This document shows, in pieces, positions 2,675 to 39,598 of a stretch of 64,000 nucleotides of DNA. How positions within the stretch are numbered: the stretch's first letter is position 1; the number at the start of each line of letters is the position of its first letter. Under the pieces are notes generated by a model. That model searched no databases. It had not been told where the DNA came from and worked only from the letters and a program-made list of their open reading frames with translations. The position numbers were made by a program, and so were the translations under genes. Source of the stretch: a virus; IMG/VR virus record IMGVR_UViG_3300026097_000805, positions 115,648 to 179,647 of that record, one strand, 5' to 3'.

Positions 2675-2713
2675 AAAAAAAAACCTTCCTTGCTGTGTGC
2701 TTGGAAGGTTTTT
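2675..2713 (-). terminator. Intrinsic terminator / attenuator 2
   Basis: AAAAACCTTCC-13nt-GGAAGG followed by T9. Confidence 0.85.
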
Positions 2714-2737
2714 GGAATCTTGTTAGCTAATGCTCGC

Positions 2738-2827
2738 TTACGTTCCGCAACCCTCCAGGCATAGACTACCCGCTGGATTTTCCGATCCAGGTGTCCATGT
2801 ATCTAATGTGAGTACGAATGTAAACAT
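2738..2827 (-). CDS. Putative attenuator leader peptide 2, MFTFVLTLDTWTPGSENPAGSLCLEGCGT (29 aa)
   Basis: Manual translation; AAGGA RBS and GATAAATA motif upstream; terminator 25 nt after stop; codons match array 2. Confidence 0.75.
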   Translation of the reverse strand: MFTFVLTLDTWTPGSENPAGSLCLEGCGT

Positions 2828-2916
2828 TGAAAGTTTTTTCCTTATTAACTATGCATTTATTTATCATCTAGATAAAAAACACGCACATATTGGCTTATTT
2901 TTGGAACTTTGCTGTG

Positions 2917-3965: not shown

Positions 3966-4315
3966 TTTATATCCTCTCTATACCATCCAGTATTGTATTC
4001 ATCTACAATGTTTACATTATTTACACGATCATAACGGAAACTGCGCCATCCTTTAGCATTTACGTCCCATACACTCACAACAGCATCTGAGACTTTTCGA
4101 ACAGCTTTTTGAGTCATAGGATCTTTCTTAGTTGCTGGCGGTTTCATGTCTTCACGCAAGGTACAGGTCATAACACGCTTGTCACCGTCTAATTTAGTAA
4201 AGTCAACTACGAGCACATTTTGTTCTAGTAATCTTTCTAAATCTTCACGTACAGGAATACCTTTGAGTGTTGCTACTGTCTCAGCGACTTGAGACGACTT
4301 TATCTGCGAATCCAT
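3962..4315 (-). CDS. SH3-fold/WYL-like phage protein
   Basis: [15 protein letters not shown]...[15 protein letters not shown] pattern; start uncertain. Confidence 0.6.
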
Positions 4316-4898
4316 TTTCTACTGCTTCCTCTGCTGTTAAGAACGTATCAAACTTCATAGTTTCAAACAGTTCTTCATAAGACTTGTTTGCTGTGTTGTG
4401 TTTAACATACAGCTCTGTAAGACGCTTGTTGATCTTCTGCGACTCTTCGTAATGACGTTTTGCATCTTCAAACTGTAGCTCTTGAACATGCACACTGCCA
4501 CTTGTACCTGGAGTACCTGAGCTTACACGATGGATCATCGTACGGCTTTCTGGCAATACAACTCGCTTTCCTGGCGTGCCTGCTTGTGCAAGGAACGAAC
4601 CCATTGAACATGCTTGGCCCATTACAATAGTGCGTATATCGGGCTTAATAAACTGCATAGTGTCGTAAATAGCAAGTCCTGCTGTGACAGCGCCTCCGGG
4701 CGAGTTAATGTACAAACTAATTTCTTTGTCACTGTTTTGACTTTCTAGATATAGCAACTGTGCTACAATCAAATTGGCCATATTATCTTCTACTGGACCG
4801 TTCAACATCACAATACGGTCTTTCATCAATCGGCTGTAAATATCGTATGAACGTTCGCCGCGACTTTCTTGTTCTACTACCATTGGAATTAGTGGCAT
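4281..4898 (-). CDS. clpP: ATP-dependent Clp protease proteolytic subunit
   Basis: [25 protein letters not shown] (catalytic Ser), [19 protein letters not shown]. Confidence 0.96.
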
Positions 4899-8246: not shown

Positions 8247-8545
8247 TATCCTTCCTTCTCTAAATCCCACTGTACCTTATTAGGTGGTGCTGGAGGAGTT
8301 CTTGACTTCTCCTTGGTGAATACATAAAAAGTAAAGAACAAACAAGTAAGAAGCACGGTGTGTCCAATAATGTTGTATCCAATAAACAGTAGTTCTGCTG
8401 TGTAGATACCAAAGCCGATACACCACATTGCCGCAAGTAGATTGCTTGCTAAGAACTTGTATTCCATAGGACTGTTGCGTAGTCCGTTCTTTGTAGCATC
8501 CAAGATGCCGTAGGCAAAAGTGCCCAAGTTAATCCAACCTCTCAT
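8246..8545 (-). CDS. Membrane protein
   Basis: Two hydrophobic segments. Confidence 0.7.
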   Translation of the reverse strand: MRGWINLGTFAYGILDATKNGLRNSPMEYKFLASNLLAAMWCIGFGIYTAELLFIGYNIIGHTVLLTCLFFTFYVFTKEKSRTPPAPPNKVQWDLEKEG

Positions 8546-9681
8546 TTTAAAATCTCCACGATTCTTTCTGCTAATTGTTTAAACCATTCAGCATCCTTGC
8601 CCCGTGTAGTCTCTGCGGCTGTGCCAATTCTAATACCACTTGTTTCTACAAACGAACGTGGATCATTTGGTACGCCATTCTTGTTTACTGTGATGCCATT
8701 CTCTTCCAATAAGTCTGCGGCTTCACGACCTGAATGTTTACTTTCACTCAAGTCAAGTAATAGTATATGCGAATCCGTGCCTCCTGTCAAGAGTTTAAAG
8801 CCATTATCTACAAATACTCTTGCCATTGCTTGTGCATTGTGTACAACACGACTTGCATAGTCAATAAACTCGTCTGTGTTTGCTTCTGCGAATGCCTGTG
8901 CTTTTGCGGCAACAATGTTCATCAATGGTCCGCCCTGTGTGCCTGGGAAGATTGCTGAGTTTATCTTTTTAGTAAAGAACTCATCGTTCCAAAGAATAAT
9001 GCCGCCGCGAGGCCCACGCAAAGTTTTGTGTGTTGTGCTTGTGACAACATCTGCATAATCACAGGGATTAGGATATGCTTTGCCAGCAATCAAGCCACTG
9101 TAATGTGCCATATCAACCATAAAGATTGCGCCTACTTGATCTGCAATATGACGCATTTCTTCCCAGTCAATGCGGCGTGGATATGCACTTGCCCCTGCAA
9201 TAATCATAGCAGGTTCTACTTCCAGTGCTTGTTTCATAATAGCATCATAGTCTAACCAACCTTCATCGTTTACACCATAACTGTGTGCTTCAAACCATTT
9301 GCCACTTACATTCGCTGGTGATCCGTGTGATAAATGTCCACCACTTGCCAAGTCCATTCCTAGGATTTTATCACCTGGTTGTAAAAATGCTTTGAACACA
9401 GCAAGGTTAGCGTTAGCACCTGAATGCGGTTGAACATTGGCAAATTCACATCCATACAGTTCTTTGAGTTCGTCAATGGCAAGTTGCTCAACCTCATCCA
9501 TGTGCTCGCAACCATTGTAGTATCGCTTGCCTGGATAACCTTCTGCATACTTGTTGGTAAACACACTACCGCACAATTGCATAACTGCTTCACTTGCAAA
9601 GTTTTCACTGGCAATAAGTTCTACTGTTTGATACTGTCTGTCTGTTTCTTTTGCAAGAATGTTATTGATTCTTTGATCCAT
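8542..9681 (-). CDS. glyA: Serine hydroxymethyltransferase
   Basis: ELIASENF, NKYAEGYPGKRYY, TTHKTLRGPRGG (PLP Lys), SGIRIGT; start MDQR. Confidence 0.97.
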   Translation of the reverse strand: MDQRINNILAKETDRQYQTVELIASENFASEAVMQLCGSVFTNKYAEGYPGKRYYNGCEHMDEVEQLAIDELKELYGCEFANVQPHSGANANLAVFKAFLQPGDKILGMDLASGGHLSHGSPANVSGKWFEAHSYGVNDEGWLDYDAIMKQALEVEPAMIIAGASAYPRRIDWEEMRHIADQVGAIFMVDMAHYSGLIAGKAYPNPCDYADVVTSTTHKTLRGPRGGIILWNDEFFTKKINSAIFPGTQGGPLMNIVAAKAQAFAEANTDEFIDYASRVVHNAQAMARVFVDNGFKLLTGGTDSHILLLDLSESKHSGREAADLLEENGITVNKNGVPNDPRSFVETSGIRIGTAAETTRGKDAEWFKQLAERIVEILK

Positions 9682-9931
9682 TGTTTTTCCTTTGTTCATA
9701 GTCGTGCATTAGTACAGTTAGCTCATCTAACTCATTGCCGCTTTGTATTACTTCTGGACACTTCCTTGATATCATGTCTAAATCGTAAGGACGGGGATAA
9801 TGTCGCAGACAACTACGTGCCATGTTTCTAACTTCTCTAGACACTCGCGGTGTCTTCTTAGGATCGCACAAGTCCAACAGAAACTTTTCTGTGTACCGTA
9901 AACTGTTGTAGCGTTCACATGGCAATGTCAT
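9662..9931 (-). CDS. Conserved phage hypothetical protein
   Basis: MTLPCERYNSL...TPRVSREVR...CLRHYP. Confidence 0.7.
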   Translation of the reverse strand: MTLPCERYNSLRYTEKFLLDLCDPKKTPRVSREVRNMARSCLRHYPRPYDLDMISRKCPEVIQSGNELDELTVLMHDYEQRKNNGSKNQ

Positions 9932-38947: not shown

Positions 38948-39063
38948 ATAAAATATTCCTTTTTTCTTATTTGGAGTGAGTTTGTTGCCCACTTAGTAAT
39001 TATAGATATGCCGAGTATTTTGCACTTGTTCTAGAGCGGATTTAAGTTGATTTTGAGTATAAT

Positions 39064-39097
39064 AAAAAAGAGTGTTGCATCGCTACAACACTCTTTT
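39064..39097 (-). terminator. Terminator after tmRNA
   Basis: AAAAGAGTGTTG-8nt-CAACACTCTTTTTT. Confidence 0.8.
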
Positions 39098-39104
39098 GCT
39101 ATGT

Positions 39105-39393
39105 TTGATAACAAGGTCTAACTACCTCGTAGCGATTAAGCCGCTAATGCCGTTTCTGGCGCATAATTGTCGTTTGCAATTATAGTTTTCGTTCGCGTTA
39201 ACCGAGCTTACATCCGGACAACTCCACTTACCTATTAAACGTCAATCGATCCTATCTCAGCCCCATCATAAACACATGCCCGACGTTTCTTATGTCTCAA
39301 TATGCTATCTGCATATCCAGCACATGTGCTTATGGTGGAGCTGCCGGGATTCGCACCCGGGTCTTGTCCGTCGTTGAGTTTGCTTCAACGTTG
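39105..39393 (-). ncRNA. ssrA: Two-piece circularly permuted tmRNA, tag ANDNYAPETALAA
   Basis: Acceptor piece ...CCGGGTGCGAATCCCGGCAGCTCCACCA (CCA ends 39333), spacer, coding piece from GGGGCTG (39264), G3:U70, tag ORF 39136-39177; outer ends approximate. Confidence 0.92.
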
Positions 39394-39424
39394 TAGTATA
39401 TTTATAACACAATTCTAAAATGTG

Positions 39425-39598
39425 TCAACCTAAAAATACCAAACCCCAGCCGTGATTGGCAATTGCATTCAGTATAATAGCAAGACAGGTAGCAATGTGT
39501 AAAAGTATCCACACTGTGCGGATCATTGCTACCTTATCTGCTTTGCGGTCGTCGTCATAGGCTTTGTGACCTATAGCTTTACACCACAGTTCCCACAT
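39425..39598 (-). CDS. Small membrane protein (57 aa)
   Basis: Manual translation MWELWCKAIG.KA..DD..ADKVAMIRT. Confidence 0.6.
   Translation of the reverse strand: MWELWCKAIGHKAYDDDRKADKVAMIRTVWILLHIATCLAIILNAIANHGWGLVFLG

Follow-up and report, generated by a model that had tools for sequence, protein, structure and literature searches.

The 12 tRNA genes of array 2 in an uncultured, T4-like phage are probably preceded by a ribosome-mediated (leader-peptide) transcription attenuator, which would add a conditional and probably late extra input to their expression; in the absence of experimental data, we put the probability of this reading at about 0.7. The sequence-level criteria for an attenuator are met, namely a short ORF with a ribosome-binding site, codons that match the tRNAs behind it, an intrinsic terminator and an antiterminator that excludes it. 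An earlier note on this DNA had proposed such a device, and the computational follow-up reported here supports it through array-specific codons, conservation in a family of relatives and terminator and antiterminator helices with changes on both sides, without transcript or translation data. Against it stands the presence of conserved strong promoters after the terminator, which can express the array without the attenuator.

The leader ORF and the array that it precedes

The window analysed here is the final 64 kb of a 179,647-bp phage contig with a G+C content of about 40% and nearly all of its genes on the minus strand. The host group of the phage is not established. Its gene content includes a class Ia ribonucleotide reductase, ClpP, serine hydroxymethyltransferase and a permuted tmRNA. 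The ClpP (4281–4898, minus strand) is 65% identical to jumbo-phage proteins that carry the annotation ClpP or head maturation protease, and has more than 590 relatives in viral contigs, and the serine hydroxymethyltransferase (8542–9699, minus strand) is full-length (Pfam SHMT, E = 4e-149). The tmRNA (39045–39446, minus strand) is of the permuted alpha type, which may hint at the host group; ARAGORN assigns it a tag peptide of 13 residues ending in ALAA, and it matches the Rfam families RF04321 at 111 bits and RF01849 at 86 bits. BLAST of the region revealed no close relatives among GenBank phages (the near mode gave tRNA matches only, the distant mode none), and a search with the 2OG-Fe(II) oxygenase gene upstream of the leader returned only distant cyanophage-like relatives, all without tRNAs. 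Uncultured relatives are numerous in IMG/VR and in JGI metagenomes.

Array 2 begins with Asn, Ser(gct), Gly(tcc), Thr, Leu(tag), Pro, Ala, Gly(gcc) and tRNA(CAU) and continues, after a 303-nt gap in which neither a tRNA nor an Rfam family match was found, with Ser(tga), Asp and Glu (Table 1). Since the leader lists Ser(tga), Asp and Glu as well, it fits a single transcription unit spanning the gap. Between the internal promoter and tRNA-Asn lie a short hairpin and, after it, the boxA-like sequence GCTCTTTGACAA, which satisfies the rrn-type criterion of a boxA-like sequence after the promoter (without Nus-binding data) and is nearly identical in the relative L103. The arms of the inverted repeat that flanks the array are exact reverse complements, and the layout of hairpin, boxA-like sequence and flanking repeat resembles an rrn-like leader–trailer helix. 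The boxA-like element is part of the transcript of the internal promoter and not of the attenuator.

Table 1. Coordinates of the leader, its regulatory elements and neighbouring features, as positions in the window
Feature	Position	Strand	Basis or remark
2OG-Fe(II) oxygenase gene	3513–2917	minus	upstream neighbour of the leader
Late-type promoter motif GATAAATA (then AA)	2865–2858	minus	motif occurrences, strand bias
Shine-Dalgarno AAGGA, 11 nt before ATG	2843–2839	minus	conserved in relatives with TTCAATG start context
Leader ORF (leader 2), 29 codons + TAA	2827–2738	minus	ORF; same-frame homologues in all family members
Sensor core, codons 9–22	2803–2762	minus	one or two cognate codons for each of 11 array-2 tRNAs
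Central hairpin: CTGGAT, 6-nt loop, ATCCAG	2790–2773	minus	predicted, inside the sensor core
Antiterminator 5' arm, within codons 24–27	2757–2749	minus	ends 8 nt before the stop codon
Intrinsic terminator	2713–2675	minus	A-run + CCTTCC, 13-nt apical region, GGAAGG, 9-U tract at 2683–2675
Shared segment (terminator 5' arm and antiterminator 3' arm)	2710–2702	minus	folding
Internal sigma-70 promoter TTGACA, 17 nt, TATAGT	2654–2626	minus	11/12 consensus positions
Hairpin, 8 bp	2613–2595	minus	read from sequence, between internal promoter and tRNA-Asn
BoxA-like GCTCTTTGACAA	2591–2580	minus	read from sequence
Inverted repeat, ~22–24 nt	one arm within 2613–2564, partner 1186–1160	minus	partner behind the last array-2 tRNA
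tRNA array 2, 12 tRNAs	2555–1192	minus	ARAGORN + Rfam
Gap inside array 2, 303 nt	1750–1448	minus	between tRNA(CAU) and Ser(tga)
Second unit: promoter, leader 1, terminator, 8 tRNAs (array 1)	1148–285	minus
Sibling attenuator of array 1	1148–940	minus	same design as the leader 2 unit

The earlier note had described a 29-codon ORF whose codons 9–22 read GAT ACA TGG ACA CCT GGA TCG GAA AAT CCA GCG GGT AGT CTA, and its coordinates, letters and tRNA anticodons all agree with our analysis. Under strict wobble rules, leader 2 contains a cognate codon for 11 of the 12 array-2 tRNAs, tRNA(CAU) alone being unmatched save for the start codon. The description of this match as covering 'all 11 elongator tRNAs' is not supported as it stands, since it assumes, without proof, that tRNA(CAU) is not an elongator. 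After the start, 19 of the 28 sense codons are cognate to array 2; the other nine are TGG, TGC (twice), TTT, TTC, GTA, CTC, TTA and CCT, of which only TGG and CCT fall in the sensor core. The core encodes 10 different amino acids.

We scanned the 179.6-kb genome in six frames, and only one of 174,219 stop-free 14-codon windows covers all 11 tRNAs: it starts at 2803, which is codon 9 of the leader. At window lengths of 12, 14 and 16 codons, the leader alone holds the genome-wide maximum, and only two of 2,574 short ORFs (15–45 codons) reach 11, one of them being the leader ORF. Just 42% of the codons in phage genes are read by the array-2 elongators. The codon match is thus an observed property of this locus for which chance is excluded.

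The same design recurs in front of array 1. Leader 1 contains the sole 13-codon window in the genome that covers all 8 array-1 tRNAs (scan position 1073–1070), and its Arg and His codons are explained by Arg and His tRNAs in the ortholog of the relative L007. The order there is promoter, leader 1, terminator and tRNAs, with no promoter after the terminator, which differs from the array-2 unit; the array-1 attenuator can be the sole control of its array. Each leader corresponds to its own array: leader 2 covers 11/12 of array 2 vs 3/8 of array 1, and leader 1 covers 8/8 of array 1 vs 5/12 of array 2. General phage codon usage cannot produce this partition of codons between the two leaders. The choice of synonymous codons points the same way, in that, given the amino acid, cognate codons number 38 in three independently found leaders where 28.1 are expected (P = 0.002). 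Leader 2 also retains one Val codon, GTA, for which array 2 has no tRNA; the corresponding array of L007 has Val(tac), which suggests loss of a Val tRNA in this phage.

Within the sensor core, the stem letters of the central hairpin are identical in this window and in the relatives L078 and L103, the latter two having been found without use of the motif. Later family members were retrieved using the central-hairpin motif, so identity there is forced. By inference only, we regard this hairpin as a candidate RNA polymerase pause hairpin. It contains a GATC (2783–2787, minus strand) that is invariant here and in family members. We set aside an origin of the hairpin from a degenerate tRNA or T-arm, considered on its sequence alone, as this would not explain the codon list. 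A degenerate 12-residue pattern of the leader core had no matches in viral contigs.

Terminator, antiterminator and promoters

The terminator has an 11-bp stem, a 13-nt apical region containing a 2-bp mini-helix and nine U residues, and folds at −13.5 to −17.7 kcal/mol; its unusually large apical region (loop >8 nt) accounts for its absence from a list made by a simple consensus scan. The pairing of 2757–2749 with the terminator 5' arm at 2710–2702, claimed earlier as a 9-bp helix, proved real (one of its pairs is G·U): it is predicted by RNAfold, with a duplex energy of −15.6 kcal/mol vs −7.8 ± 2.1 kcal/mol for shuffled arms (z = −3.7). When the terminator 3' arm is left out, RNAfold pairs these two segments around an inner hairpin spanning the stop codon; on the whole sequence, the terminator forms. 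These alternative structures and their conservation are among the observed features of the locus. Within each of the 11 aligned family sequences, the ORF segment that pairs best with the terminator 5' arm ends 7–10 nt before the stop codon, the position expected of an antiterminator, at −10.6 to −15.6 kcal/mol vs −5.2 to −7.5 kcal/mol for the next best site. Across the aligned family, the predicted stability of the antiterminator stem-loop (−18 to −28 kcal/mol) is greater than that of the terminator hairpin (−13 to −18 kcal/mol). The terminator arms vary by type (CCTTCC, CCCTCC, CCCTGG and GCCCTTAGC), and the upstream antiterminator arm changes in step. An RNAalifold consensus, built on an imperfect alignment, has both sides changed in 4/7 pairs of each of the two helices. 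For L144-type sequences, the antiterminator complementarity is individually non-significant (P 0.2–0.4).

The position of the antiterminator arm relative to the stop codon bears on how the switch could be read by a ribosome. With the usual ribosome footprint, the antiterminator arm would lie beneath a ribosome whose A site holds the stop codon, and would stay accessible during a stall at codons 9 to ~19. Stalling at codons 20–22 may mask the nearby arm, and the last three sensor codons are perhaps less effective. The earlier note had also allowed ATCCAG to pair either with the upstream CTGGAT or with a site overlapping the antiterminator. The hairpin of CTGGAT and ATCCAG is predicted and conserved, but the alternative is neither predicted nor conserved in relatives. 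We rejected a trp-like model with three states, where ATCCAG would mask the antiterminator arm, since RNAfold does not yield it and the partner is absent from the L143 and L144-type leaders. No conserved partner that would mask the antiterminator arm in untranslated RNA was found in the aligned family, and the default of an untranslated transcript is therefore probably read-through, unlike trp.

We next consider the promoters. The promoter-type motif observed before the leader, GATAAATA, has 16 occurrences on the coding strand and a single one on the opposite strand, usually 24–39 nt before start codons, including those of several virion or tail-fibre-like genes. At the leader, the ATG lies 37 nt downstream from the start of ATAAATA, in the frequent context of GATAAATA, a few bases and TAGTTAA. 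From its position and strand bias, we infer that GATAAATA is the T4-like late-type promoter motif of this phage; the late-type motif that had been noted before the leader is indeed the phage's own, at its usual distance from a start codon. In the leader family the motif is nearly invariant, its second base being A or C. A promoter scan finds no sigma-70 site before the leader, in agreement with the earlier note. Sigma-70 sites upstream of the leader are present in L078 (a good promoter) and L103, and the corresponding promoter in this window has lost its −35 element. For transcription through the attenuator, the late-type motif is the only candidate promoter directly before the leader in this window, and the strong sigma-70 promoter stands after the terminator.

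That internal promoter had been raised earlier as a caveat, and rightly so, given that it is conserved across the family members that were read. One to three sigma-70 promoters follow the terminator in these relatives, as does a AGGCAAAA stretch followed by TTGACAG. Because the internal promoters are conserved, attenuation can only be an extra input and not the sole control of array 2. Judged from its recurrence in the family sequences, the combination of an attenuated input with unconditional promoters is a designed feature rather than an accident of this genome.

Related leaders in uncultured phages

Relatives were retrieved through the neighbouring phosphatase and ClpP genes, without the leader as a query. 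This identified homologous elements in L078/L079 and L103, each with the late-type motif, AAGGA, the same ATG context, an ORF of 29–31 codons and a terminator, followed by two or three sigma-70 promoters, a boxA-like sequence and an Asn-led array. A pattern made from three shared blocks and run on viral and metagenome contigs added further members as well as four chance matches. Homologous leaders are now found in L078/L143, L103/L144, L146/L153/L170, L151/L161, L157, L155, L160, L163 and L167, and they represent at least six diverged sequence types (that of this window, L160/L163, L167, L155, L143 and the L144 group). L160 is the true ortholog of the element in this window: the two hardly differ in promoter motif, Shine-Dalgarno region and terminator loop, and although most leader positions beyond the central twelve codons have changed, the L160 leader still consists of array-type codons. 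Throughout the family, the peptides are poorly conserved outside five or six residues.

Family leaders match their own first arrays. Where the arrays are readable, first-array coverage is 10/11, 13/13, 12/12, 13/14, 11/14, 12/13, 8/9 and 6/6, and coverage of the second arrays is 2/9, 5/13, 2/9 and 2/9, that is, 79–100% vs 22–38%. The full coverage seen in L078 is reached by only 16 of 1.16 million windows of related phages, at least half of which overlap within its own leader, and that of L103 by 85 of 1.33 million windows of related phage DNA, placing both in the 1e-5 to 6e-5 tail. The codons of a leader also vary with the tRNAs of its array: in L078, Val(tac) and a Met tRNA in the array go with two GTA codons and two internal ATG codons in the leader, and for the GAA and TAT codons of the L103-type leader, the corresponding Glu and Tyr tRNAs are encoded in L146, L153 and L161. 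The family members share descent, so these counts are not independent, and the search pattern fixes the central hairpin. The element is also uncommon. In a survey of 28 non-redundant first arrays, 25 have no upstream leader or terminator, including one 9-tRNA array; only L078, L103 and L006 have both, L006 with a different leader type. The first arrays of L078 and L103 contain at least 11 tRNAs, like that of this window.

A second class of leader precedes Trp-led second arrays. In 19 non-redundant relatives these comprise a promoter, a leader of about 20 codons, a strong terminator and tRNAs within 1–93 nt. The leaders cover 64 of 69 array tRNAs vs 56.4 ± 2.0 when arrays are shuffled among leaders (P ~1e-4), and for the variable tRNAs alone 19 of 24 vs 12.1 ± 2.0 (P ~3e-4). 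As the sequences are related by descent, these P values overstate independence; the direction is nevertheless clear. Between L085 and L117, a single Gly-to-Cys change in the leader core is found where the arrays differ in Gly(tcc) vs Cys(gca), and across the class pairs of ATA codons in the leader accompany Ile(tat). The Trp-type leader of L069 had no matches among GenBank phages.

Proposed mechanism, alternatives and known systems

We propose the following mechanism, in which leader translation, ribosome stalling, the direction of the switch and its timing are inferred. Transcripts from the late-type motif, or reading in from the upstream gene, would carry the 29-codon leader. If decoding of the sensor codons is fast, the antiterminator arm would be masked by a ribosome that has arrived at the stop codon, the terminator would form and the array would remain untranscribed. 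When any cognate charged tRNA is short, the ribosome would stall in the sensor core, the antiterminator arm would pair with the shared segment and the polymerase would enter the array. The tRNA products would thereby feed back negatively on their own late transcription, with about 11 inputs to an OR gate. Unconditional, presumably early expression would come from the sigma-70 promoter that follows the terminator, leaving the attenuator as a second, conditional input. A wider extension of this proposal, which we offer only tentatively and consider doubtful, is that such leaders constitute a homeostat of the tRNA pool in a large clade of uncultured T4-like phages: each would be a catalogue that gates its operon by testing, one codon after another, the supply of the phage's own tRNAs, and the late input to array 2 would serve as an alarm that raises the synthesis of replacement tRNAs when particular tRNAs are depleted by anticodon nucleases of the host's defences or by host shut-off.

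The same hardware could instead sense host translation capacity or amino-acid supply, responding to multi-amino-acid starvation rather than giving feedback specific to phage tRNAs. A ribosome reads any charged tRNA, whether of host or phage, the core spans 10 different amino acids, and with conserved internal promoters the switch alone does not set tRNA output, all of which a starvation sensor would accommodate. A general sensor would not, however, need two leaders that split the amino acids exactly as the two arrays do, leaders that follow array content across relatives or a preference for the synonymous codons that phage tRNAs read, and on these grounds we consider it unlikely. The likeness between each leader and its own array also weighs on another explanation, in which the terminator merely ends the upstream late unit or shields the sigma-70 promoter from incoming polymerases, the ORF encodes a small protein or is a remnant that is not translated, and the match reflects inherited composition. 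The terminator does immediately precede a strong promoter in every family member, and most relatives do without the element; yet this leaves unexplained the genome-wide unique coverage, the array-specific partition and the conserved antiterminator 7–10 nt before the stop, and the leaders have retained array-type codons although their peptides vary freely beyond the central hairpin, as the true ortholog L160 shows. We regard this explanation as quite improbable.

We also weighed whether the product of attenuation, either the terminated leader RNA or the 29-residue peptide, itself acts in trans. Precedent comes from Sinorhizobium, where the attenuator products rnTrpL and peTrpL are reported to be trans-acting (PMC7298713, PMC7968998), and the central hairpin of the phage leader is strongly conserved. 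Against this, no target is known, the peptide varies outside its few conserved residues, and the codon list would remain unexplained, so that such activity could only be an added role; we give it very little credence. The attenuator with tRNA-specific feedback remains the best explanation.

Attenuation by leader peptides belongs to the textbook mechanisms, with known targets in amino-acid biosynthesis and among a few synthetase genes. Among enterobacterial leaders, thr (Thr/Ile) and ilvGMEDA (Ile/Leu/Val) are multivalent, and trp, his, phe and leu leaders are also known. The phage element shares with them a short translated leader (here inferred), regulatory codons, an intrinsic terminator, several amino acids per leader, and an antiterminator that shares a terminator segment and is masked (again by inference here) by the ribosome at the leader stop codon. 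It differs in that the enterobacterial leaders control biosynthetic enzymes whereas the phage leader controls tRNA genes, in that about 11 isoacceptors are represented by one or two codons apiece where classical leaders have tandem runs for one to three amino acids, in that no conserved anti-antiterminator (the 1:2 pairing of trp) was found, and in having its terminator succeeded by a strong promoter. In E. coli, pheST with its pheM leader is an attenuator that controls synthetase genes. There too, a gene of the translation apparatus is controlled by the decoding speed of its own cognate leader codons; unlike the phage leader, its target is a synthetase, it responds to one amino acid only and it is not phage-encoded. 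No Rfam leader or riboswitch family matched; Phe_leader scored 14.9 bits vs a threshold of 55.

T-boxes bind uncharged tRNA directly, without translation, and control synthetase and amino-acid genes. They are alike in that the state of a tRNA sets the choice between terminator and antiterminator; as an identity for this element a T-box riboswitch was rejected, since T-box features were not found and a search of Rfam gave no match, either at the gathering threshold or with E up to 10. Among published systems, the closest analogy is the cryptic long tRNA operon of Anabaena sp. PCC 7120, which translational stress induces (PMC8421152) and for which TrcR acts as repressor (PMC10272220). Both are accessory tRNA arrays that impaired translation turns on (in the phage, by our proposal), but the Anabaena operon is bacterial and uses a protein repressor, and leader peptide, attenuation and terminator are not mentioned in PMC8421152 or PMC10272220. 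Full-text literature searches found no published leader-peptide attenuation of tRNA genes. The phage element differs from known attenuators in its tRNA-gene target, its list of about 11 isoacceptors and the placement of a promoter behind the terminator.

If the proposal is true, the product that is sensed is also the product that is made, giving direct feedback control of the tRNA pool, and it would show how phages decide the timing of tRNA-gene expression, which is an open question. As a sensor, the design would be compact and programmable and would report how fast many codons are decoded simultaneously. In addition, the leader is a readable list of the tRNAs meant for its operon and can reveal tRNA genes that were lost or went undetected: for the Val codon of leader 2, as for the His and Arg codons in leader 1, the matching tRNAs persist in relatives.

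Several further features were seen at the arrays of relatives. In L006 (3650–4120), an array of just six tRNAs comes after a promoter, a 34-codon leader in which 18 of the 20 amino acids are represented, and a terminator, with two degenerate, T-arm-like tRNA remnants between the terminator and tRNA-Asn; this leader may have outlived its array. In L007 (231–614), an HNH-endonuclease-like ORF lies directly before tRNA-Asn and is itself preceded by a duplicated 5' tRNA-Asn fragment, an arrangement suggestive of a homing endonuclease having inserted where the array begins. A G+C-rich, apparently structured stretch of about 450 nt in L060 (8900–9345) ends in CCA and adjoins a tRNA-Asn identical to that of this window. 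ARAGORN calls a tRNA-Ser with the anticodon ACT (A34) at the place of Ser(gct) in the first arrays of L063, L066, L071, L074, L076 and L081, and the same call is made in those of L082, L089, L093, L100, L107 and L129. It also identifies an amber-reading tRNA with a CTA anticodon in L124 (13628–13702).
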